Assembly: GCF_003018255.1 (NCBI RefSeq)
Contig: NZ_CP027440.1
From: Escherichia coli
GTDB lineage: Bacteria > Pseudomonadota > Gammaproteobacteria > Enterobacterales > Enterobacteriaceae
Direction: 5' to 3' (one strand)
Length of the DNA: 64,000 nt
Shown: positions 21,258-57,257 of the stretch, piece by piece
How the letters are laid out: the number at the start of each line of letters is the position of its first letter
Numbering within the stretch: position 1 is the stretch's first letter
The notes under the pieces: generated by a model
The model's database searches: none
Told to the model about the DNA's origin: nothing
What the model saw: the letters and a program-made list of their open reading frames with translations, nothing else
Translations under genes and position numbers: made by a program

Positions 21258-22115
21258 ATGAAAGCACCAGGCTTGCCCGCCGATCAACAATTTTTCGCCG
21301 ATCTGTTCAGCGGCCTGGTGCTTAACCCGCAACTACTGGGGCGCGTCTGGTTTGCCAGCCAGCCTGCCTCGTTACCGGTGGGCAGTTTATGTATTGATTT
21401 TCCCCGTCTGGATATCGTGCTGCGCGGCGAATACGGCAATCTGCTGGAAGCAAAGCAGCAACGTATGGTTGAAGGAGAAATGCTGTTTATTCCGGCGCGC
21501 GCGGCTAATTTACCGATCAACAACAAACCGGTGATGCTGTTAAGCCTGGTGTTCGCACCGACCTGGCTTGGGTTATCGTTTTACGATAGCCGCACCACGT
21601 CGTTGTTGCATCCGGTTCGCCAGATCCAACTTCCCAGCCTGCAACGCGGCGAAGGTGAAGCAATGCTTACTGCCCTCACCCATCTTAGCCGTTCGCCGCT
21701 GGAGCAGAATATCATTCAGCCGCTGGTGTTAAGTTTGCTGCATCTTTGCCGTAACGTGGTGAATATGCCGCCGGGCAATTCGCAGCCGCGCGGCGATTTT
21801 CTCTATCACAGCATTTGTAACTGGGTTCAGGATAATTATGCCCAGCCGCTCACCCGTGAGAGCGTGGCGCAGTTTTTTAATATCACGCCAAATCATCTGT
21901 CAAAACTGTTTGCTCAGCATGGAACAATGCGTTTTATCGAGTATGTTCGCTGGGTACGAATGGCAAAAGCGAGGATGATTTTGCAAAAATATCATCTGTC
22001 GATTCATGAAGTGGCGCAGCGTTGCGGGTTTCCGGATAGCGACTATTTTTGTCGCGTTTTCCGGCGTCAGTTTGGTCTGACGCCGGGAGAGTACAGCGCC
22101 CGTTTTCAGGGCTAA
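21258..22115 (+). CDS. ypdC: AraC-family transcriptional regulator
   Basis: 285-aa ORF with C-terminal AraC-type HTH (HEVAQRCGFPDSDYFCRVFRRQFGLTPGEY). Confidence 0.9.
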   Translation: MKAPGLPADQQFFADLFSGLVLNPQLLGRVWFASQPASLPVGSLCIDFPRLDIVLRGEYGNLLEAKQQRMVEGEMLFIPARAANLPINNKPVMLLSLVFAPTWLGLSFYDSRTTSLLHPVRQIQLPSLQRGEGEAMLTALTHLSRSPLEQNIIQPLVLSLLHLCRNVVNMPPGNSQPRGDFLYHSICNWVQDNYAQPLTRESVAQFFNITPNHLSKLFAQHGTMRFIEYVRWVRMAKARMILQKYHLSIHEVAQRCGFPDSDYFCRVFRRQFGLTPGEYSARFQG

Positions 22116-22117
22116 CG

Positions 22118-24613
22118 TCAGAAGGTTAATTCTGTTTCCAGCAGCGTCAGGATGCTTTGTGCATCTTGCGCGGCAAACAACGACTGGCGGAAGTTTTTAT
22201 TCACCAGTTTACGCGCCAGCTGCGAGAAGACTTTCACATGATTCATCCCTTCGTTAGCGCCCAGTGTCAGCATGATCACCAGTTCGACTTCGCCCATTTC
22301 TGACTGCCAGTCAACCGGTTTCACCAGTCGGGCAATGCTGATACTGGAATGACGGATCCACTGAGATTTGGTGTGCGGGATCGCTACGCCAAAACCAACG
22401 CCGGTGGTAACAATCTCTTCCCGCTGCCAGACATCCTCTTCCAGCTCGAACGGATGTTCAGTGCGCCCGTTAACGCCGAGGTTACCGCACAGGAACTGGA
22501 TCGCCTGCTCTTTATTGCTAAAAGCCTGATCAACAAAGATATTCTCCAGCGCCAGCAGAGGGCGAACGTCTTCTTCCGGCGTAAACGCGGTGAGTAACGC
22601 TTCAATCTCCTGCGCGCTGCGGCATTCACATGCCTGACGCGCCAGTTCCCGACACGCCTCGCTATCCAGTTGACGAAGCTGGCTTTTCACCGCCGGAATG
22701 CGCGGGCTACTCATACTCAGCTCGTCCAGGCCCAGCCCAAGCAGTAGCGGCAGATAACGGCTTTCACCGCCCAGTTCACCGCAAATACCTACCCATTTAC
22801 CCCGCTGATGCGCAGTGGTAACAATCTGCTGCAACATGCGCAGGAACGATGGCGTAATCGGGTTATACAGCGGCGATACGCGCGGGTTATTACGATCGAC
22901 CGCATACAGATACTGGGTCATATCGTTGGAGCCGATACTGAAGAAATCGACCTCATCGCAGAAGTGATCGATGATGTAGCACACCGACGGCACTTCCACC
23001 ATGATACCCAGCGTAATCGTCTCTGCATGACGCAGGCCATCGCGCTTAAGCTCAACGATCGCTTTTTGGATCTCGCCCTTCACCCATAAGATCTGATCGA
23101 GGCTGTGAACCATTGGGATCATCAACTGGGCGTTGCCGAAACTGGCGGCGCGCAAAATGGCCCGCAGTTGAGTGCGGAACAGGCCAGCAAATTCCGGGTA
23201 AATTCGTACCGCACGATAGCCGAGGAACGGGTTCTCTTCCTGGGGAATGTTGAGGTAAGGAATGCTTTTATCGCCGCCGATGTCCATTGTGCGGAAGATA
23301 ATCGGCTTGTCGCCCGCGGCCAGTAGCACCTGCTGGTAGGCTTCAAATTGCTCCTGCTCGTCCGGCGCACTGTCGCGATCCATATAGAGCATTTCGGTAC
23401 GAAACAGCCCGACGCCTTCCGCGCCGTTGGCAAACGCGCCAGGCGCTTCCAGCGCGGTGCCAATATTCGCCGCGATATCAATGCGCTTGTTATCACGGGA
23501 ATAGGCCAGCTGCGCGGCGGCCTGCGCCTGCTGCTGCTGACGTTTATCCGCCAGCATCTGCGCAACCTGATAATAACCGCTCACCGCGTCATTCGGGTTA
23601 ATCGCCAACACGCCGCACTGGGCGTCAAGCACCGCCGGTTGCCCGGCATAGCGCGCAATGGCATCCAGCGGCAGGCCGCTCAGTACCGGGATCGCCGAGG
23701 CGCGGGCCAGAATCAGGGTATGCGAGGTGCGCCCGGTTTTCTCCAGAATCATGCCCGCAAGATTTTTTAAATTGAGGCTCAAAAACTGGCTAGGGGTTAA
23801 ATCCTCTGCCACCAGAATGGTCGGTTTTTCCAGCACCAGATTGTTGCGCGGTTTTAGTTCCGGCCAGGTGATATGCAGTAACTGTTCGCTGATATCGCGA
23901 ATGTCGCTAACCCGCTCGCGCAGATAATCACTGGCAGAAGCAGAAAGTTTGGCGCAAACCTGCTCCATATTGCTGATGATCGCCGCCCCCAGCCCCTGAT
24001 GCTGTTCTGCCATCAGGTGACGGATATTGCCTGCAAATTCATCATCCTGAATCAGCGACAAATGGGCGCTGAGGATAGTTTTGCTTTCGCCGTCACGCTC
24101 ACGCAATTGCTGGTTCAGTTGCTCGGCAAGCGTTGCCAGGCTGTGCTCCAGCCGGGTGGAATCTTGCGCACTGGCGGGGATCGCCCGGTAACTGTCGAGG
24201 CTGTCGCTCTGTAACAGGGTCAGCGTACCCACGCCGACGCCGCTTGCCAGCACATTGCCGTACAGTAAATCAGGATTCAGACGGCTTAATGAACGCGGCA
24301 GCGGATGCGCCGTCAGTTCTGCCTGCGTTGGCTGGACGCTGTCGCTGTCGATAAAGCGCACCTGGATGTACTCTTCCAGCACGCGCCGCGCCTGCTCTTC
24401 ATCGCTGCCGCTAATGTTCAGGCTGCAACCGTCATTAAATAGGGTGCCGGTGCCAATCAGCGCCAGCGAGCTTTTGGCATCTGCCTTTGCGTTCTGGCGA
24501 TGGTTAATAAAAGTGATTTCGCTTTGCCACTGGCTGCACTGTTCTTTAAGTTCCCACGCCGGACGAGCATGCAGACCGTTTGGCAAAGGACAGAGAAATT
24601 GAATCGTTAACAT
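22118..24613 (-). CDS. fryA: PTS multiphosphoryl transfer protein (HPr-like, Enzyme I-like and IIA domains fused)
   Basis: 831-aa ORF; HPr-like N-terminus (GLHARPA), central EI-like PEP-utilising domain paralogous to ptsI in this window, C-terminal IIA-like domain. Confidence 0.92.
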   Translation of the reverse strand: MLTIQFLCPLPNGLHARPAWELKEQCSQWQSEITFINHRQNAKADAKSSLALIGTGTLFNDGCSLNISGSDEEQARRVLEEYIQVRFIDSDSVQPTQAELTAHPLPRSLSRLNPDLLYGNVLASGVGVGTLTLLQSDSLDSYRAIPASAQDSTRLEHSLATLAEQLNQQLRERDGESKTILSAHLSLIQDDEFAGNIRHLMAEQHQGLGAAIISNMEQVCAKLSASASDYLRERVSDIRDISEQLLHITWPELKPRNNLVLEKPTILVAEDLTPSQFLSLNLKNLAGMILEKTGRTSHTLILARASAIPVLSGLPLDAIARYAGQPAVLDAQCGVLAINPNDAVSGYYQVAQMLADKRQQQQAQAAAQLAYSRDNKRIDIAANIGTALEAPGAFANGAEGVGLFRTEMLYMDRDSAPDEQEQFEAYQQVLLAAGDKPIIFRTMDIGGDKSIPYLNIPQEENPFLGYRAVRIYPEFAGLFRTQLRAILRAASFGNAQLMIPMVHSLDQILWVKGEIQKAIVELKRDGLRHAETITLGIMVEVPSVCYIIDHFCDEVDFFSIGSNDMTQYLYAVDRNNPRVSPLYNPITPSFLRMLQQIVTTAHQRGKWVGICGELGGESRYLPLLLGLGLDELSMSSPRIPAVKSQLRQLDSEACRELARQACECRSAQEIEALLTAFTPEEDVRPLLALENIFVDQAFSNKEQAIQFLCGNLGVNGRTEHPFELEEDVWQREEIVTTGVGFGVAIPHTKSQWIRHSSISIARLVKPVDWQSEMGEVELVIMLTLGANEGMNHVKVFSQLARKLVNKNFRQSLFAAQDAQSILTLLETELTF

Positions 24614-33169: not shown

Positions 33170-34372
33170 ATGGACCGCGTCCTTCATTTTGTACTGGCAC
33201 TTGCCGTTGTTGCGATTCTCGCACTGCTGGTAAGCAGCGACCGCAAAAAAATTCGTATCCGTTATGTTATTCAACTGCTTGTTATCGAAGTGTTACTGGC
33301 GTGGTTCTTCCTGAACTCCGACGTTGGTTTGGGCTTCGTGAAAGGCTTCTCCGAAATGTTTGAGAAACTGCTCGGATTTGCCAACGAAGGGACTAACTTC
33401 GTCTTTGGTAGCATGAATGATCAAGGCCTGGCATTCTTCTTCCTGAAAGTGCTGTGCCCAATCGTCTTTATCTCTGCGCTGATCGGTATTCTCCAGCACA
33501 TTCGCGTGTTGCCGGTGATTATCCGCGCAATTGGTTTCCTGCTCTCCAAAGTCAACGGTATGGGCAAACTGGAATCCTTTAACGCCGTCAGCTCCCTGAT
33601 TCTGGGTCAGTCTGAAAACTTTATTGCCTATAAAGATATCCTTGGCAAAATCTCCCGTAACCGTATGTACACCATGGCAGCAACGGCGATGTCCACCGTG
33701 TCGATGTCCATCGTTGGTGCATACATGACCATGCTGGAACCGAAATACGTCGTTGCAGCGCTGGTACTGAACATGTTCAGCACCTTTATCGTGCTGTCGC
33801 TGATCAACCCTTACCGTGTTGATGCCAGTGAAGAAAACATTCAGATGTCCAACCTGCACGAAGGTCAGAGCTTCTTCGAAATGCTGGGTGAATACATTCT
33901 GGCAGGTTTCAAAGTTGCCATTATCGTTGCCGCAATGCTGATCGGCTTTATCGCCCTGATCGCCGCGCTGAACGCACTGTTTGCTACCGTGACTGGCTGG
34001 TTTGGCTACAGCATCTCCTTCCAGGGCATCCTGGGCTACATCTTCTATCCGATTGCATGGGTGATGGGTGTTCCTTCCAGTGAAGCACTGCAAGTGGGCA
34101 GTATCATGGCGACCAAACTGGTTTCCAACGAGTTCGTTGCGATGATGGATCTGCAGAAAATTGCTTCCACGCTCTCTCCGCGTGCTGATGGCATCATCTC
34201 TGTGTTCCTGGTTTCCTTCGCTAACTTCTCATCAATCGGGATTATCGCAGGTGCAGTTAAAGGCCTGAATGAAGAGCAAGGTAACGTGGTTTCTCGCTTC
34301 GGTCTGAAACTGGTTTACGGCTCTACCCTGGTGAGTGTGCTGTCTGCGTCAATCGCAGCACTGGTGCTGTAA
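33170..34372 (+). CDS. nupC: Concentrative nucleoside:H+ symporter
   Basis: Start chosen at [20 protein letters not shown] (400 aa), with GGAG 8 nt upstream, rather than ATG at 33131. Confidence 0.93.
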
Positions 34373-34382
34373 GACCATACAT

Positions 34383-34413
34383 AAAAAAGCCGGGGATAAT
34401 TCCCCGGTTTTTT
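34383..34413. terminator. Bidirectional intrinsic terminator between nupC and pdeA
   Basis: AAAAAA-GCCGGGGATAATTCCCCGGC-TTTTTT; A-tract and T-tract flank the hairpin. Confidence 0.8.
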
Positions 34414-34420
34414 ACGCCTG

Positions 34421-36610
34421 TTAATCAGCTAATGGCTGCGGGCGACCAATCAAATACCCTTGCAGATATTGCACCCCGAGCTTATGCAATAGCGCCTGCT
34501 GCTGTTGCGTCTCGACAAACTCCGCGACCACACTCAATGACTTCGCTTTCGCCAGATCGGTAATTGATCTCACAATCATCGCATCCAGCGTGTTCGTGAC
34601 GATATCTTTCACAAAGACGCCATCAATTTTGATGATATCAGCCTGCAAACGCTTTAACCGTTCGTAGTTGGCATATCCGGTGCCAAAGTCATCAATCGCA
34701 ATCCGGAAACCAAACTTATGCAGCTGCTCGATGTTGTACATGCTGCTTTCTGCGTTAGAAAACGCCTGCTCCTCGGTGATCTCAAGAATGACTGCCTGCG
34801 GGGAGATGTGATAACGCTTAAACAGACGAATAATCCGCCCGGCAATATTCTTTTGCAGCAGCGTGAGCGGCATTAAATTGACTGAAAAGCGCGGGCCTTT
34901 TTTGTCGCAAGGATGTGTTGCCAGCCACTTCAACAGGGATTCCAGCACTTGCAAATCAAAACGCGCGCTAAGGTTAAACTGAGCAATAAGGGGCAGAAAC
35001 TTATCCGGGGTCATAATGCCGCCGTCATATTTCAGTCGCGCGAGGATCTCATCATAACCTTCACCCTCTTTGTTGCGAATTGGCTGGGCGTAGAGCAGCA
35101 AATCACCCTGATCTAACGCCGTACGAATGGTATTCAGCAATAGCACCTGTTTAGTGGTCTGCCCGGAAACCATCTCCTCTCTGCTATCCAGCGCCAGCAC
35201 ATGGTGATGTGCGCAGGATTGCTCCGCCAGCCAGCTTAACTGCCCCAACAAGGGTTGCAGGGTTTCCTGATTTCCATCAAAACGCCCCCAGGCAGCACCA
35301 TAGCCCATATCCAGCCCGGTATTGTTCCAGTGAATTTGCCGACTATTCAGGATGTTAACCATATGCTGGAGTCGCCCTTCCGTTTCCGGTCCACTCAGCA
35401 CTAACAGCAGTTCACTACCCGGCAATTGATACAACTTTTCGTTTTCCTGCATCAACGGCAGCAGCGTACGGTAAATTGATCGGATACAGTGAACGCGCAT
35501 CATTAAGCCGTAATGACGACTCATAAACTCAAGATTATCAATGCGCAGGCAGCAAAAACTCTTGCCCGCCTCTTGCTCCGGCGCTTGTTCTAACGCACGA
35601 AAGTTGGGTAGGAGCGTTAACGGATCGGTCAGCGCCTGCAAATGCCAGCGGCGATTAAGCCATTCACTGCGATGATAAATGCGCACCATATAGAGCAGGC
35701 AAACGCTAAAGGAAATCAGCACCGCGAGAATAAATGCCAGCGAATATTCGGTTAGTACCCCTTGCAAAAAGTTCTGGTTGTAATTCAGCAGGCAAAGCGT
35801 TGAAACAGCCCAGGTGAGATTTAAAAACGGATAGCGAAGCTTACCGACACCGAGGGTAAAGATGATAAAGAAAACAGGTACCAGATAACCAGCAATAAAG
35901 TCATTTTCATACGGTGTGCACATCAGAAGTAGCAGCACGCTAAGAGCTGCCAGCCAGCTTAAGGTAAATGCGCGTTTCTCTTTGCTCAACGACGGAGCGA
36001 TATCCCTACGCCACAATATCTGTGCAAAGTGGGGACTTACAATCATGCGGGCGAGATAGTAAAAAAGCATGTTGTAAATCAGCACTGCGGTGAAAAGGCT
36101 TAGCAAATCAACGACCGTGAAAATGGCATCCGCATCGCCGAAAAAGGTAGATATCTTTAGCGGAAAATCAAAGAAATTTCCCACAAGATACATGCTGCAT
36201 TTGATGCCAATCGGCGCCACCAAACCAAGCCAGAAAAGACGTTGCCAGACATATCGGCTGGTCAATCCATAACGCCAACGCGTCCCCAGCTGCCAGCGTA
36301 ATATTGCGCAGGCACACAACACCACAAACGTCTGGCTGCCGAGCATGACCGCGGTCTGTAAAAAAGAGAGATGAAAGTTCCACAGATTGGTGCAAAACAT
36401 CCCGCATAAAACGGGGACGACACCGCGCCAGCCAAAGATAAACAAGATTGACAGCATTACGCACAGTGGCATCCACGCCAGAAAGATATAACTGGAGTGG
36501 ATAATGGCAAGTGGCGAAATAAAACGGGATAGCTGAATAAGTACCACGGTGAGCGTAAACGCTAGTGTGAATATCTTGATATTTTTTATCAGGTTATGCT
36601 CCACAAACAT
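34421..36610 (-). CDS. pdeA: c-di-GMP phosphodiesterase (membrane sensor domain, degenerate GGDEF, EAL)
   Basis: Large N-terminal multi-TM region, C-terminal EAL-domain motifs (DDFGTGYANYERL); start chosen at MFVEHNLIKN (729 aa) rather than upstream ATG at 36670. Confidence 0.88.
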   Translation of the reverse strand: MFVEHNLIKNIKIFTLAFTLTVVLIQLSRFISPLAIIHSSYIFLAWMPLCVMLSILFIFGWRGVVPVLCGMFCTNLWNFHLSFLQTAVMLGSQTFVVLCACAILRWQLGTRWRYGLTSRYVWQRLFWLGLVAPIGIKCSMYLVGNFFDFPLKISTFFGDADAIFTVVDLLSLFTAVLIYNMLFYYLARMIVSPHFAQILWRRDIAPSLSKEKRAFTLSWLAALSVLLLLMCTPYENDFIAGYLVPVFFIIFTLGVGKLRYPFLNLTWAVSTLCLLNYNQNFLQGVLTEYSLAFILAVLISFSVCLLYMVRIYHRSEWLNRRWHLQALTDPLTLLPNFRALEQAPEQEAGKSFCCLRIDNLEFMSRHYGLMMRVHCIRSIYRTLLPLMQENEKLYQLPGSELLLVLSGPETEGRLQHMVNILNSRQIHWNNTGLDMGYGAAWGRFDGNQETLQPLLGQLSWLAEQSCAHHHVLALDSREEMVSGQTTKQVLLLNTIRTALDQGDLLLYAQPIRNKEGEGYDEILARLKYDGGIMTPDKFLPLIAQFNLSARFDLQVLESLLKWLATHPCDKKGPRFSVNLMPLTLLQKNIAGRIIRLFKRYHISPQAVILEITEEQAFSNAESSMYNIEQLHKFGFRIAIDDFGTGYANYERLKRLQADIIKIDGVFVKDIVTNTLDAMIVRSITDLAKAKSLSVVAEFVETQQQQALLHKLGVQYLQGYLIGRPQPLAD

Positions 36611-38032: not shown

Positions 38033-39448
38033 TTATTGCTGATTTTCGCGTTCAGCAATAAAAGCCAGCGCTTTGTTGATACGCTCGATACTGCGGGTCT
38101 TACCGATTGCGTGAACGGTAACATCCAGCGCCGGAGACTGCCCCGCACCGGTTACGGCGACACGCAGCGGCATACCAACTTTACCCATACCCACTTCCAG
38201 CTCATCCGCCGTCGCCTGAATAGCGTGATGAACGTTTTCAGCGGTCCAGTCAGTAATCGCAGTCAGTTTGTCACGAACCACTTCCAGCGGCTGACGCGCT
38301 ACCGGACGCAGATGTTTTTTCGCGGCGTCGGCATCGAACTCAGCAAAATCTTCGTAGAAATAACGGCAGCTCTGTGCCATCTCTTTCAGCGTCTTGCAGC
38401 GTTCGCCCAGCAGTTTCACCAGATCAGCCAGCTGCGGGCCGTTACGGGTATCGATATTTTCCTGCTCAATGTGCCATTGTAAGTGAGTAGCAACATACTC
38501 CGGCGGCAGCGCGTTAATGTAGTGATGGTTCAGCCACAGCAGCTTGTCGGTGTTGAACGCACTGGCAGATTTGCTGACGGCATTCAGAGTGAAGTATTTG
38601 ATCATCTCTTCACGAGTGAAGATTTCCTGATCGCCGTGGGACCAGCCCAGACGCACCAGATAGTTCAGCAGTGCTTCTGGCAAATAACCGTCATCACGAT
38701 ACTGCATTACGCTGACCGCCCCGTGACGTTTGGACAGTTTTTTACCGTCATCGCCGTTGATCATAGAAACGTGCGCGTAAACCGGTACCGGCGCTTTCAG
38801 GGCTTTAAGAATGTTGATCTGGCGCGGCGTGTTGTTGATATGGTCTTCGCCACGGATAACATGGGTGATTTCCATATCCCAGTCATCAACAACCACACAG
38901 AAGTTATAGGTTGGGGAACCATCGGTACGGCGAATGATCAGATCATCCAGCTCCTGGTTGCTGAACTCAATCGGGCCACGGATCTGATCGTCAAAAACAA
39001 CAGAACCTTCCTGCGGGTTAGCAAAACGTACAACGCACGGTTCATCATCAGCATGATGCTCATGGCTGTGGCGGCAGCGACCGTCATAACGCGGCTTCTC
39101 ACCTTTCGCCATTTGCTCTTCGCGCAGCGCTTCCAGGCGCTCTTTAGAACAATAGCATTTATAAGCTGTGCCCTCTTCCAGCATCTGATCGATCACCGCG
39201 TTGTAGCGATCAAAACGTTTGGTCTGGTAGTACGGACCTTCATCCCACTCCAGGCTCAGCCAGTTCATGCCATCCATAATGGCTTCGATAGCTTCCGGCG
39301 TGGAACGCTCAAGATCGGTGTCTTCAATACGCAGCACGAACTCACCGCCGTGGTTACGTGCAAAAAGCCAGGAGTAAAGAGCAGTACGCGCGCCGCCAAC
39401 GTGCAGATAGCCTGTTGGGCTTGGCGCGAAGCGAGTTTTGATTTTCAT
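38033..39448 (-). CDS. gltX: Glutamyl-tRNA synthetase
   Basis: 471-aa ORF with class I HIGH motif ([12 protein letters not shown]) and KMSKS-type motif (KLSKR). Confidence 0.96.
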
Positions 39449-40108: not shown

Positions 40109-40135
40109 AAAAAAGCGCCCTAAAGGCGCTTTTTT
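40109..40135 (+). terminator. Intrinsic terminator of the val-lys tRNA operon
   Basis: AAAAGCGCC-CTAA-AGGCGC-TTTTTT immediately after lysV. Confidence 0.8.
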
Positions 40136-40214: not shown

Positions 40215-41099
40215 CTACTGCGCCAACGCCGCCAGCAGTTTAACCAGCGCGGGCGTCACCTGCTGCGTTTCATAAACAATATATAAGTCTGCCGGGATGC
40301 GTTCTTTGAGCGGACGGAATATGACACCGGGCCAGTTCATCTGCGCGTAGCTGTCCGCTATCAATGTGATACCAATACCCATACTGACCATGGCGAGTAC
40401 CGTTTGCGGTTCATTAACTTCGCGAATAACAACCGGTGAAAATCCCACCTGCTGGCAAACTCGCTGCAAAAAATCCCAGTCAGTGTACACGGGCGGCATT
40501 GTAACGAAATACTCGTCACGTAGCGCTTCCAGCGGGACGGTGGAAAATGATGAGAGATGATGCTCTTCAGGCATCGCCACCAGAAACGCCGATTCATGCA
40601 ACCGTAAGCTGGTAAAACCAGTCGGTGGTTCTGTCGCCATTCGCCAGATCCCGGCATCAAGTTCGCGGCGTTCCAGCAAGGCCATTTGCATCGCAGGCAT
40701 CTTTTCGCGAAACAGAACTTCAACGTTAGGATTTTCTCTAAGGAATCGCCGCATAACCGGGCGCATCCGTCCCCACATTGCCGTTCCCACAACCCCGAGT
40801 TCAATCCGCCCTGCTTCTCCCCGACCTATTTGTTCAACCCGAGCCAATACATTATTTGCATTCACCAACAATCGACGCGATTCTTCCATCAAGATTTTGC
40901 CCGCGTGTGTCAGTACGACGCTGCGCGAATGGCGAATAAAAAGCTGCGTGCCGAGTTGATTTTCCAGCTCTTTAATATGAATGCTGAGCGGAGGCTGAGA
41001 CATATTTAAACGCGCTGCTGCGCGACCAAAATGCAACTCTTCCGCTACGGCAAGAAAATAACGGAGCAACTTAAGATCTGTTCTGTATACGCGTTCCAT
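40215..41099 (-). CDS. xapR: LysR-family transcriptional activator of xapAB
   Basis: N-terminal LysR HTH (LKLLRYFLAVAEELHFGRAAARLNMSQPPLS); start at MERVYRTDL (294 aa), with an in-frame ATG at 41114 as an alternative. Confidence 0.88.
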   Translation of the reverse strand: MERVYRTDLKLLRYFLAVAEELHFGRAAARLNMSQPPLSIHIKELENQLGTQLFIRHSRSVVLTHAGKILMEESRRLLVNANNVLARVEQIGRGEAGRIELGVVGTAMWGRMRPVMRRFLRENPNVEVLFREKMPAMQMALLERRELDAGIWRMATEPPTGFTSLRLHESAFLVAMPEEHHLSSFSTVPLEALRDEYFVTMPPVYTDWDFLQRVCQQVGFSPVVIREVNEPQTVLAMVSMGIGITLIADSYAQMNWPGVIFRPLKERIPADLYIVYETQQVTPALVKLLAALAQ

Positions 41100-41350
41100 A
41101 ATTAAGTGCTCCATATAATAAATACATCGTATTAAATTATCATGGCATAAAGTATTTCACCACCAGATATCCGACATACATAAACACAATGGATAATATA
41201 CCCGGCAATACATTTGGAACAGGAATAGGTAATCGCACGATTGTAAACAAAGCACCAATGCCAAAACCAACGCCAGAAGAAAATAAAATATCTTTCACTA
41301 ATTAACCTTTATCATAAAAGCAGCCCCAAGGAACAGAGCTGCGAATCCTT

Positions 41351-43749: not shown

Positions 43750-44514
43750 ATGAAAAAACATCTTTTTACTCTGACACTCTCTTCTGTATTGGCGATACCA
43801 GCAGTATCCCATGCAGAATTTAAAGGCGGTTTTGCTGATATAGGTATTCATTATCTTGACTGGACTAGCAGAACCACTGAGAAATCGTCGACCAAATCAC
43901 ACAAAGATGATTTTGGATATCTGGAACTGGAAGGCGGCGCTAACTTTAGTTGGGGAGAAATGTACGGGTTCTTCGACTGGGAAAACTTTTATAATGATCG
44001 TCATGATAAACCGGGTAGCGAGCAGCGTTATACCTTTAAAAATACCAACCGTATTTACCTGGGTGACACCGGATTTAATCTCTACTTGCATGCGTATGGC
44101 ACCTACGGTTCTGCGAATCGCGTGAATTTCCATGACGATATGTTCCTTTACGGTATCGGCTACAATTTCACCGGCAGCGGTTGGTGGTTCAAACCGTTCT
44201 TTGCAAAACGCTATACAGACCAAACCTATTATACCGGCGATAACGGTTATGTCGCCGGTTGGGTTGCAGGTTACAGCTTTATGCTGGGCAGTGAGAAATT
44301 CACCCTCACCAACTGGAACGAGTACGAGTTTGATCGTGATGCCACCTACGCGGCAGGTAATGGCGGCAAAGAAGGTCTGAACGGTGCCGTCGCACTTTGG
44401 TGGAATGCAACTTCACACATCACCACAGGAATTCAGTATCGTTATGCGGATGACAAACTGGGCGAAGATTTTTACCAGGATGCAATAATCTACTCCATCA
44501 AATTTAATTTCTGA
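43750..44514 (+). CDS. yfeN: Putative outer-membrane beta-barrel protein
   Basis: 254-aa ORF; signal peptide (MKKHLFTLTLSSVLAIPAVSHA), aromatic-rich alternating pattern, C-terminal Phe (IKFNF). Confidence 0.82.
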   Translation: MKKHLFTLTLSSVLAIPAVSHAEFKGGFADIGIHYLDWTSRTTEKSSTKSHKDDFGYLELEGGANFSWGEMYGFFDWENFYNDRHDKPGSEQRYTFKNTNRIYLGDTGFNLYLHAYGTYGSANRVNFHDDMFLYGIGYNFTGSGWWFKPFFAKRYTDQTYYTGDNGYVAGWVAGYSFMLGSEKFTLTNWNEYEFDRDATYAAGNGGKEGLNGAVALWWNATSHITTGIQYRYADDKLGEDFYQDAIIYSIKFNF

Positions 44515-44551
44515 TTGATTACTGCCGGGGCTCCCGGCAGTATGAATAGCT

Positions 44552-45478
44552 CTATATCTGATACAGCGGATCCCCTTCCCGCCCAGCCATTAGCGCACGG
44601 CCCTGGCCTCGTACCACTTCCCATAACGCTTGTGCGGCGGTGGAAAGTGAACGGTTCTTCCTGCGCACCAGCATCAACTGGCGTTCCACCACCGGCGTAA
44701 TGCGCTTTACCACCAGCGGGCTACCTTCAGGTAACGGCAGCGCCAGTGCGGGAAGAATACTAATGCCGATGCCTGCGGCTACCATCGGGAACAGCGTCGC
44801 CGGATGACCAATCTCCTGCACAATATTCGCCTGAATACCGTTGCGCGCCAGAGCTGCGTCAATCAGCGGTCGGCTGCCTGACGCGTAATCCTGCAACACC
44901 AATTTCGCTCCCTGTAATGCCTGCCAGGGTACATAATCTTCCGCGGCTAAAGCGCTATCGCGATGGCAAAGCAAGAAGAAAGGCTCGGAAAGAATCGCTT
45001 CACATTGCAGATCGCTCACTGGGCCTGGATCGATGACGATGCCAAAATCGACATCTCCCTGGCGAATACTTTCCATCACCCACTGCTGCGGACGATCGTG
45101 CAGGACAAACTGAATATCGGGATAGCGGCGATGGCTTTCAGCAATGCATTGCGGAATAAGATGCGCGGAAATGGTCTGGCTGGCAGCGACCCGAACTTTT
45201 CCGCTCAGTTGTTGCCCCATACGCCCGGTATCGCGCAACGTGCTGTTAAGTTCATCCAGCAGTCGCTCAAGACGCAAAGCCAACTGCTGCCCTGCATCTG
45301 TAAGCACCACTTCACGCGTGGTTCTGTCCAGCAGGCGAACACCAGTATGATTTTCCAGCTCCTTCACACTGTGACTTACTGCCGACTGACTCAGGCCGAT
45401 ACGCTCTCCTGCACGACTAAAACTTTTCTCCTGCGCTACTGTGACGAAAACCTTTAATTGTTTTAAAGAATAATTCAT
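44552..45478 (-). CDS. yfeR: LysR-family transcriptional regulator
   Basis: 308-aa ORF with N-terminal LysR HTH ([34 protein letters not shown]). Confidence 0.88.
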
Positions 45479-52036: not shown

Positions 52037-52064
52037 AAAAAAGCACCTTTTCAGGTGCTTTTTT
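52037..52064 (+). terminator. Intrinsic terminator after cysK
   Basis: AAAAGCACC-TTTTCAG-GGTGC-TTTTTT. Confidence 0.8.
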
Positions 52065-54467: not shown

Positions 54468-54977
54468 ATGGGTTTGTTCGATAAACTGAAATCTCTGGTT
54501 TCCGACGACAAGAAGGATACCGGAACTATTGAGATCATTGCTCCGCTCTCTGGCGAGATCGTCAATATCGAAGACGTGCCGGATGTCGTTTTTGCGGAAA
54601 AAATCGTTGGTGATGGCATTGCTATCAAACCAACTGGAAACAAAATGGTCGCGCCTGTAGACGGCACCATTGGTAAAATCTTTGAAACCAACCACGCGTT
54701 CTCTATCGAATCTGATAGCGGCGTTGAACTGTTCGTCCACTTCGGTATCGACACCGTTGAACTGAAAGGCGAAGGCTTCAAGCGTATTGCTGAAGAAGGT
54801 CAGCGCGTGAAAGTTGGCGATACTGTCATTGAATTTGATCTGCCGCTGCTGGAAGAGAAAGCCAAGTCTACCCTGACTCCGGTTGTTATCTCCAACATGG
54901 ACGAAATCAAAGAACTGATCAAACTGTCCGGTAGCGTGACTGTGGGTGAAACCCCGGTTATCCGCATCAAGAAGTAA
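54468..54977 (+). CDS. crr: Glucose-specific PTS EIIA (EIIA-Glc)
   Basis: 169-aa ORF, last gene of ptsHI-crr. Confidence 0.97.
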
Positions 54978-54991
54978 TTCTTGCCGCAGTG

Positions 54992-55020
54992 AAAAATGGC
55001 GCCCATCGGCGCCATTTTTT
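54992..55020. terminator. Bidirectional intrinsic terminator shared by crr and pdxK
   Basis: AAAAATGGCGCC-CATC-GGCGCCATTTTTT; the T-tract overlaps the pdxK stop codon (55019-55021 on minus). Confidence 0.8.
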
Positions 55021-55870
55021 ATGCTTCCGCCAGCGGCGGCAAAATCAATTCATCGCTCTCATGCTGCTGGGTGTAGCGCATCACTTCCAGTACGCGCAAC
55101 CCCGCACGGTGCACCGCATCGTTTAACGCCTTCCCTTTCAGCAAACCACTGATAAGCTGAGCACAAAACAGGTCGCCAGTCCCTTTCAGGTCGGTTTTTA
55201 CCCGTGAATGGGAAATGACATTCACGCTGTCGGCACTGACCACCACCACCTGCATCTCCTGATTTTCTTCATTACCGGAGGCGCTGGTAATCACCACCCA
55301 TTTTAATGTGTCTGAAAGCAGACTTTTTGCGGCAGCAATGGCACTGTCGAGATCGCGGCAATTTTTACCGGTCAGGATTTCCAGCTCAAAAATATTGGGG
55401 GTAATTCCCTGCGCCAGCGGCAGTAAATATTGTCGATACGCCTCGGGAAGGTCAGGTTTGACATAAATTCCGCTATCAATATCGCCAATCACTGGATCGA
55501 CCATGATCAATAGGTCAGGATGGTCTTTGCGTAGCGCAGTCAGCCACTCGGCAAGGATTTTGATTTGCGATGACGTTCCCATATAGCCCGTGGTTACAGC
55601 ACGAAGTTGGCGCAACGCATCACGCTCCTGAAGCGCACGCAAATAGCCGCTAAACCATTCGTCCGGAATCGCACCACCGTAGAAAGTGTCATAATGCGGT
55701 GTATTGCTCAGCAATACCGTCGGCACGGCAAAGACATTCAGGCCGTTCTGTTTTATAGCAGGCACCGCAATGCTGTTGCCTACGCTGCCGTACACTACCT
55801 GCGACTGCACGGCGACGATATCCGCCTGCAATGCCCTGCTCTTATCGTTAAACAACAACAAACTACTCAT
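55019..55870 (-). CDS. pdxK: Pyridoxal/pyridoxine/pyridoxamine kinase
   Basis: 283-aa ORF of the ribokinase-like PdxK family. Confidence 0.93.
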
Positions 55871-55974: not shown

Positions 55975-56343
55975 ATGAAGAAAATCATTTGTCTGGTCAT
56001 TACGCTGCTAATGACACTCCCCGTTTACGCGAAGTTAACTGCCCATGAAGAAGCCCGTATCAACGCCATGCTGGAGGGATTAGCACAGAAAAAGGATTTG
56101 ATATTTGTGCGTAACGGCGATGAACATACCTGCGATGAAGCGGTTTCCCACCTGCGTCTGAAGCTCGGCAATACCCGTAACCGCATTGACACTGCCGAGC
56201 AGTTTATTGATAAGGTAGCCTCGTCGTCATCGATTACCGGGAAGCCGTATATCGTGAAGATGCCCGGTAAAAGCGATGAGAACGCACAACCTTTTTTACA
56301 TGCGCTGATTGCGCAGACGGATAAAACGGTGCCTGCGCAATAA
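55975..56343 (+). CDS. yfeK: Small secreted protein of unknown function
   Basis: 122-aa ORF with signal peptide ([19 protein letters not shown]); divergent from pdxK. Confidence 0.82.
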
Positions 56344-56345
56344 TC

Positions 56346-57257
56346 TTAAATCCCCGCCCCCTGGCTAAAATGCTCTTCCCCAAACACCCCGGTAGAAAGG
56401 TAGCGATCGCCGCGATCGCAGATGATCGCCACAACCACCGCGCCGGGGTTAGCTTTTGCCACGCGCAGTGCTCCGGCAACCGCGCCGCCGGAGCTGACGC
56501 CACAGAATATTCCTTCCCGCACTGCCAGCTCGCGCATGGTGTTTTCCGCATCGCGCTGATGAATATCCAGCACTTCATCCACCAGCGAAGCGTTGAAAAT
56601 CCCTGGCAGATATTCCGCAGGCCAGCGGCGAATGCCGGGAATGCTACTGCCCTCTTCCGGCTGCAGGCCAACAATGGTCACCGGTTTGGATTGTTCGCGC
56701 ATAAAGCGTGACACACCGGTAATGGTGCCGGTCGTCCCCATACTGGAGACAAAATGCGTAATGCGCCCGCCAGTTTGCTGCCAGATTTCCGGCCCGGTGG
56801 TGGTGTAATGGGCGAAGGGATTATCAGGATTATTGAACTGATCGAGCAGCTTTCCTTCACCACGATTGGCCATCTCCAGCGCCAGATCGCGCGCGCCTTC
56901 CATGCCCTGCTCTTTGGTGACAAGAATCAGTTCCGCACCGTATGTCAGCATCGCTGCACGGCGCTCCTGGCTCATGTTGTCGGGCATCAGCAATTTCATG
57001 CGATAGCCTTTAAGCGCGGCAATCATTGCCAGCGCAATGCCGGTGTTACCACTGGTGGCTTCGATCAGCACGTCACCCGGTTTAATTTCCCCGCGCTTTT
57101 CCGCCTCAACGATCATCGAAAGTGCCGCACGATCTTTTACCGAACCTGCCGGGTTATTGCCTTCCAGTTTCAACCAGACTTCACTGCCGTTATTCGGCCC
57201 CATTCGCTGCAACTTCACCAGAGGCGTATTGCCAATTGTTTGTTCTAATGTACTCAC
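56346..57257 (-). CDS. cysM: O-acetylserine/thiosulfate sulfhydrylase B (cysteine synthase B)
   Basis: 303-aa ORF; PLP-lysine motif (NPAGSVKDRAA); ends ...HFSQGAGI. Confidence 0.95.
   Translation of the reverse strand: MSTLEQTIGNTPLVKLQRMGPNNGSEVWLKLEGNNPAGSVKDRAALSMIVEAEKRGEIKPGDVLIEATSGNTGIALAMIAALKGYRMKLLMPDNMSQERRAAMLTYGAELILVTKEQGMEGARDLALEMANRGEGKLLDQFNNPDNPFAHYTTTGPEIWQQTGGRITHFVSSMGTTGTITGVSRFMREQSKPVTIVGLQPEEGSSIPGIRRWPAEYLPGIFNASLVDEVLDIHQRDAENTMRELAVREGIFCGVSSGGAVAGALRVAKANPGAVVVAIICDRGDRYLSTGVFGEEHFSQGAGI

Follow-up and report, generated by a model that had tools for sequence, protein, structure and literature searches.

A conserved hairpin terminates the ptsHI-crr operon of Escherichia coli and probably also the convergent pdxK gene

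The Escherichia coli genes crr and pdxK converge on a single hairpin (54992–55019, both strands; positions are those of the window, the 64,000-nt stretch of DNA that was analysed). This hairpin is the canonical Rho-independent terminator of ptsHI-crr, as shown by 3'-end data from K-12, and we judge it fairly likely that the same element also serves as an intrinsic terminator of pdxK. In the proposed mechanism, the GC-rich stem would fold while RNA polymerase is on the U-tract, and the weak rU:dA hybrid would free the crr transcript at 55020. With an A-tract on one side and a T-tract on the other, the hairpin is almost perfectly palindromic, so the opposite strand encodes the same stem followed by U5. 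The same hairpin would thereby end the weakly expressed pdxK, with its mRNA predicted to be released approximately 28–32 nt past the stop codon.

The window belongs to the E. coli chromosome, with the gene order cysK-ptsH-ptsI-crr on the plus strand, followed by pdxK on the minus strand in convergent orientation. The 1.5 kb around the hairpin has a match in 5425 of 5426 complete E. coli genomes, in which the RefSeq features are ptsI, crr, and pdxK; most E. coli genomes share only 95–99% identity over this region. The crr gene, encoding the PTS glucose-specific EIIA, spans 54468–54977 (+) and ends with the stop codon TAA at 54975–54977, according to its open reading frame and the RefSeq annotation of near-identical genomes. 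Its product is full length (NCBIfam NF006962, 310.7 bits, cut-off 212). The pdxK gene, encoding pyridoxine/pyridoxal/pyridoxamine kinase, occupies 55019–55870 (−) by the same two lines of evidence and is likewise full length (NCBIfam NF006034, 528.6 bits, cut-off 342, profile positions 1–282 of 283). Its stop codon TAA lies at 55021–55019 (−), the same place at which the RefSeq pdxK ends. The two genes are separated by a gap of 41 nt, which opens, directly after the crr stop codon, with a 14-nt spacer leading up to the hairpin base (TTCTTGCCGCAGTG, 54978–54991, +) that is conserved in many Enterobacteriaceae. The pdxK gene evolves much faster than crr, with protein identities between E. coli and other Enterobacteriaceae of 65–72% for PdxK and 96–99% for the crr product. 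On the far side of pdxK, yfeK (55975–56343, +) and cysM (56346–57257, −) are convergent with a 2-nt gap and no hairpin between them. The yfeS gene, which lies between yfeK and cysM in K-12, is absent from this strain, making yfeK and cysM convergent, and VCSW5 is arranged alike.

The DNA 3' of the crr stop codon reads TTCTTGCCGCAGTG AAAAATGGCGCC CATC GGCGCCATTTTT TA, in which a repeat finder detected a perfect 12-bp inverted repeat (AAAAATGGCGCC and GGCGCCATTTTT, 100% complementary). The two arms, at 54992–55003 and 55008–55019, enclose the 4-nt loop CATC at 55004–55007. Within the stem, a GC-rich core of 7 bp (TGGCGCC, 54997–55003, and GGCGCCA, 55008–55014) contains six G:C pairs. The core is directly followed on the plus strand by T6 (55015–55020), the U-tract of the crr direction, with a tail score of 4.68 and an expected crr 3' end at 55020. 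On the minus strand, the complement of the A5 at 54992–54996 forms the U-tract of the pdxK direction, a U5 continued by CAC, with a tail score of 3.80 and a predicted pdxK 3' end at approximately 54992–54988. Folding of the 30–32-nt element gave −17.7 kcal/mol for the plus-strand RNA (z −4.98) and −19.6 kcal/mol for the minus-strand RNA (z −5.39), and none of 200 shuffled sequences was as good on either strand. The core alone accounts for −12.9 kcal/mol on the plus strand and −14.2 kcal/mol on the minus strand.

Inverted repeats of this quality are rare in the window. Perfect repeats of at least 12 bp with loops of 3–8 nt were scored twice, against 0.05 expected from 100 dinucleotide shuffles, and perfect repeats of at least 10 bp were scored 12 times at six distinct sites, against 0.38 expected. 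The two repeats of at least 12 bp are the crr/pdxK hairpin and the cysK terminator (52037–52064). The latter is a perfect 12-bp, A6/T6-flanked hairpin (AAAAAAGCACCT TTTC AGGTGCTTTTTT) that scores on both strands and lies between the co-directional cysK and ptsH. A terminator scan that scores the tail after the GC core detected the crr/pdxK hairpin on both strands. A standard promoter and terminator scan of the window did not report it, because the A:T pairs were counted into the stem, leaving no T-run. The search against Rfam returned nothing at or above the gathering threshold; the best match was STnc320 (21.8 bits against a threshold of 50), and all 22 sub-threshold matches on both strands align only to the terminator stem-loops of models for unrelated sRNAs. 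A candidate outer helix enclosing the terminator, formed by TTGCCGC (54981–54987) and GCGGCAA (55035–55041, in the 3' coding end of pdxK), was rejected as a conserved feature. Across 72 species its mean z was −0.09, with 6.4 cross pairs compared with 6.2 in shuffled flanks. Extra predicted stability from this helix was seen in Escherichia and in Enterobacter/Lelliottia (z −1.7 to −2.7).

Analysis of published K-12 data places the crr transcript ends in this element. In the SMRT-Cappable-seq study of Yan et al. 2018 (PMC6131387), two forward transcripts end at NC_000913.3 position 2536387. For the ptsH-ptsI-crr transcript starting at 2533499, 62 reads stop at this position, two pass it, and four end within 50 bp beyond it, and for the crr-alone transcript starting at 2535482, 53 reads stop and one passes (PMC6131387). 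The site is typed there as a terminator and matched to an already listed b2417 terminator centred at 2536371 (PMC6131387). In K-12, the loop occupies 2536370–2536373 and a T7 occupies 2536381–2536387, with the mapped end at the last T, 7 nt after the core stem. Since the mapped end is the last U and 2536371 falls inside the loop, the known b2417 terminator is this hairpin. The sole difference between K-12 and the window is T7 in place of T6, so position 2536387 is equivalent to window position 55020. The earlier note expected the transcript 3' ends at the hairpin and not outside it, and for crr this is where they were found. Its broader claim, that one hairpin terminates both genes, was borne out for crr, with one or two reads passing the T-tract against 53–62 stopping there, and for pdxK it is plausible from anatomy and comparison.

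In the crr direction, the element combines a stable GC-rich stem, an adjacent U-tract, K-12 3' ends within that U-tract, and evolutionary maintenance. It shares with canonical intrinsic terminators the 7-bp GC-rich core, the tetraloop, the U-tract of 6–7 nt, and a position 14 nt past the crr stop codon, and apart from T6 here and T7 there it shows no substantive difference from the K-12 ptsHI-crr terminator. The curated Term-seq lists of Adams et al. 2021, which hold approximately 1000 dominant ends per condition, 23% of them (approximately 270) gene-end sites, contain no 3' end at 25363xx on either strand, a weak negative. The same Term-seq data list an internal 3' end in crr at K-12 2535958 (+), approximately window position 54592, and two in ptsI. 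The TERMITe supplements have no entries for crr or pdxK, and a full-text literature search for pdxK, crr, and terminator together and for the hairpin sequence found nothing. One paper names both genes, reporting a sigma-factor SELEX site on the pdxK/yfeK promoter side, which is irrelevant to the terminator.

Comparison across Enterobacterales revealed that the terminator is ancient and conserved, as judged from sequence. A protein search with crr, taking one genome per species, yielded 80 loci, and in 72 of the approximately 80 species the same element lies just after crr, consisting of an A-rich tract, (T/C)GGC(G/A)CC, a short loop, GG(C/T)GCC(A/G), and a T-rich tract. Standard pairs fill 98.2% of the alignment cells in these 72 species, compared with 46–68% when the 3' partner is slid by 1–3 columns. 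Compensatory changes are clear at three pairs (three or four in all), with the counts UA 37, CG 29, and AU 3 at one, GC 51 and AU 18 at another, and CG 59 and UA 4 at the last. The alignment was anchored on the hairpin and therefore leans towards structure; even so, the raw sequences themselves clearly show the double substitutions. Identity to E. coli averages 90% at the stem positions, a figure somewhat inflated by the A/T runs, against 67% at crr third codon positions, and the stem value is the higher one in all 71 species compared. In nearly all taxa, crr is followed by a convergent gene. Enterobacteriaceae have pdxK at this place, Cedecea, Buttiauxella, and Mangrovibacter have cysM, and Yersinia, Serratia, and their relatives have a gene for a sensor kinase of approximately 445 amino acids. 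This orientation in almost every taxon indicates that the crr terminator has long been sited in a convergent junction. In Citrobacter, Klebsiella, Raoultella, and Kluyvera, an insertion of 230–370 nt separates the crr terminator from the stop codon of pdxK, and at the crr hairpin of these taxa an interrupted minus-strand U-tract (TTCTTC) is frequent. An insertion downstream of crr is present at loci L007, L010, L012, L015, L017, L019, L021, L027, L032, L033, and L035 of the comparison, and at L015 a REP-like GC-rich palindrome directly follows crr.

Among the sampled E. coli genomes the hairpin is invariant, and the differences consist of T6/T7 length variation and SNPs outside the stem. The T6 allele, taken as an exact 48-nt match, occurs in 2221 records, and T7 occurs in K-12, BL21, and many others (locus L002, 3382–3388). 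The T6/T7 difference affects the U-tract of crr and the 3' untranslated region of pdxK but leaves the pdxK reading frame intact. The 48-nt query was without a match in approximately 50 of the 5426 genomes. In E. coli YJR (locus L085, NZ_CM146016.1, 61–92), homology to the window starts within the 5' arm of the hairpin and no crr is annotated upstream, indicating that a deletion or replacement has its end point within the terminator.

The end of the pdxK reading frame meets the hairpin at its base. The extended stem has its last pair at 55019, the crr T-tract has its final T at 55020, and position 55021 belongs to neither, so that two of the three stop-codon bases are shared. The middle base of the stop codon corresponds to the mapped K-12 end at 2536387. 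The earlier note was right that a hairpin, here a perfect 12-bp repeat, lies between crr and pdxK and overlaps the pdxK stop codon. It overstated the overlap in describing the crr U-tract as the complement of the last codons of pdxK: the stop codon alone is involved, with two of its three bases, and the last sense codon, GCA (Ala283, 55024–55022), is outside both the hairpin and the T-tract. In 16 of the 25 species with adjacent pdxK, the pdxK stop codon falls within 4–12 nt of the core stem, in the U-rich region of crr, and the spacing is tightest in Escherichia (4–5 nt). In the Escherichia lineage the pdxK reading frame ends at the hairpin base, and as a result two bases of its stop codon also belong to the crr U-tract. 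This overlap is a by-product of the compact intergenic region and no separate device.

For the pdxK direction, anatomy and comparison suggest that the hairpin probably stops this gene as well. The minus-strand RNA forms the stable, GC-rich core stem-loop with a U-rich tract directly 3' (UUUUUCAC), and its tail score of 3.80, against 4.68 on the plus strand, falls inside the range seen at the window's other terminator-like sites. The plus-strand tail is the stronger one here and in 60 of the 72 species. A window-wide scan showed that the minus-strand hairpin is the sole terminator-like site from the pdxK stop codon to 52058, a distance of approximately 3 kb. The minus-strand tail is stronger where pdxK is close, with a mean score of 4.09 in species whose pdxK stop codon is within 60 nt of the hairpin (n = 25) and of 3.34 where insertions have placed it farther off (n = 15; one-sided Mann-Whitney p = 0.0013); the p value is uncorrected for phylogeny and the species are not independent, so this association is only suggestive. 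In the SMRT-Cappable-seq tables, pdxK has start sites but no called termination site, its reads being too few for such a call (PMC6131387). The distance from the pdxK stop codon to the hairpin is 0 nt, because in the pdxK mRNA the third base of that codon is already the first base of the 5' arm. Li et al. 2016 reported that termination at tR2 is approximately 90% when a stop codon lies 28 nt before the terminator and below 10% at 5 nt, and that a trailing coupled ribosome causes this repression by preventing the hairpin from folding (PMC4824070). With the 5' arm starting in the stop codon, a ribosome terminating on pdxK would cover the arm, and any repression of this kind would depend on how closely translation keeps up with transcription on pdxK. 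The crr/pdxK hairpin, which begins within the pdxK stop codon, is comparable in this geometry to such stop-proximal, ribosome-repressed terminators and to classical attenuators, but it differs from them in showing no sign of a regulatory read-out and in having no antiterminator structure or leader peptide.

These features bear on the main alternative, which we regard as possible but unlikely, namely that the hairpin terminates crr only. The pdxK transcript would then read through, especially with a ribosome close behind, and be ended by Rho acting on the untranslated RNA antisense to crr, and the hairpin would at most act as a barrier to 3'-to-5' exonucleases trimming the pdxK RNA back. The short and interrupted minus-strand U-tract is in keeping with this reading, as are the zero spacing together with the documented ribosome repression of stop-proximal terminators (PMC4824070) and the lack of a called pdxK termination site in both the SMRT-Cappable-seq and the Adams et al. 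tables. Equally symmetric hairpins also occur at co-directional junctions of the same window: two of them (52043–52058, after cysK, and 40115–40129) score as terminators both ways, so a symmetric, A/T-flanked shape is no proof of two-way use, a point for which the cysK hairpin serves as an internal control. Termination of pdxK at the hairpin is favoured by a minus-strand stem and U5 that score like the other terminators of the window and by the stronger tail next to pdxK. Moreover, the Adams et al. tables are without a Rho termination region near 25359xx–25365xx, and pdxK is a single-gene unit in SMRT-Cappable-seq, although that table would not flag antisense read-through.

A collision-assisted mode of action, in which polymerases coming from both directions would pause or be trapped at the hairpin and pdxK release would need crr traffic, appears improbable, and more so than termination of crr only. 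It draws on the convergent pair with one shared stem-loop in the 41-nt gap, on a published model with single-molecule data for such elements (bioRxiv 10.1101/2022.10.23.513370), and on the high expression of crr (451 and 78 start-site reads, PMC6131387). The class in question, that of Ju, Li and Liu 2019 and of Wang et al. (bioRxiv 10.1101/2022.10.23.513370), is described as unlike intrinsic terminators. The crr/pdxK element resembles it in lying between convergent genes, in having just one stem-loop within the overlap region, and in the very high expression of one partner, but differs in its canonical U-tracts on both strands. The efficiency in the model is also highest when both genes are highly expressed, whereas pdxK reads are too few for a termination-site call. 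That the palindrome is no RNA element at all, but a chance occurrence, a DNA-level protein-binding site, or a mobile repeat, we consider to have a negligible probability. It is a perfect DNA palindrome containing GGCGCC, but chance predicts only 0.05 such repeats per window, and the differences between species are paired and structure-preserving instead of leaving a fixed sequence. It is also present in a single copy per genome (median one place), matches no Rfam family above threshold, and is sited at gene ends and not at promoters, and K-12 transcript ends map to its T-tract. A chance palindrome or DNA-binding site is excluded by the covariation, the single-copy status, and the mapped 3' ends.

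We therefore retain the reading of one intrinsic terminator for ptsHI-crr and, probably, for pdxK. The idea of transcriptional cross-talk between pdxK and crr, in which transcription of one gene affects the end formation of the other, is a reasonable one that has published precedent in convergent pairs and would apply here by analogy. A further reading, which we consider very unlikely, is that termination in the pdxK direction depends on how near the first ribosome is to the polymerase, so that tight coupling would mask the stem and let pdxK transcription read through antisense into crr. If it were true, antisense pdxK polymerases would collide with polymerases on crr and ptsI or make RNA complementary to this highly expressed message, the translation of pdxK, and with it vitamin B6 salvage, would be linked to the expression of EIIA-Glc and the PTS, and termination both ways could be adjusted by the length of the shared tract, T6 or T7.

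Intrinsic terminators that work in two directions at convergent genes are textbook knowledge, and the tonB terminator, reportedly described by Postle and Good in 1985, is the classic bidirectional example. Flanking A-tracts have been called a feature of bidirectional terminators (PMC12207403). The crr/pdxK hairpin agrees with this group in its A5/stem/T6 palindrome, the 41-nt convergent gap, and the scores on both strands. It differs in that the pdxK stop codon overlaps the hairpin base, leaving no free RNA between ribosome and stem, and in that its action in the pdxK direction is predicted. The window contains several further hairpins. A perfect 11-bp, A6/T6-flanked hairpin at 40109–40135 (AAAAAAGCGCC CTAAA GGCGCTTTTTT) scores on both strands and sits between the minus-strand open reading frames 38033–39448 and 40215–41114. 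The A/T-flanked hairpin CCGGGGA TAAT TCCCCGG at 34390–34407 lies in a 48-nt gap between two convergent open reading frames, 17 nt from the stop codon of the one that ends at 34372 (+) and 13 nt from that of the one that ends at 34421 (−). Its tail scores are 4.29 (+) and 2.85 (−), and it is a further candidate two-way terminator of the window. The 37-nt gap between the convergent open reading frames 43750–44514 (+) and 44552–45478 (−) is filled by a GC-rich hairpin at 44520–44542 (TACTGCCGGG GCT CCCGGCAGTA), which has a perfect 10-bp stem and lacks a U-tract on both sides. This hairpin looks like the U-tract-less convergent-gene terminators reportedly described by Ju et al. Finally, a perfect 10-bp inverted repeat at 22061–22086 (CCGGCGTCAG TTTGGT CTGACGCCGG) lies within the 3' end of the open reading frame 21258–22115 (+), which converges with the open reading frame 22118–24613 (−) across a 2-nt gap.

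The two-way arrangement of crr and pdxK is common and already described, and the crr terminator is already known and mapped. The element has little importance beyond correct annotation and implies no new principle. It is a clean and deeply conserved example of a two-way terminator, for which we infer use in the pdxK direction. With the pdxK stop codon at its base, it may offer a natural test case for the effect of translation on stop-adjacent terminators. In the cell, the hairpin is the 3' limit of an operon that ranks among the most highly expressed in E. coli, and it protects the weakly expressed pdxK against antisense transcription.
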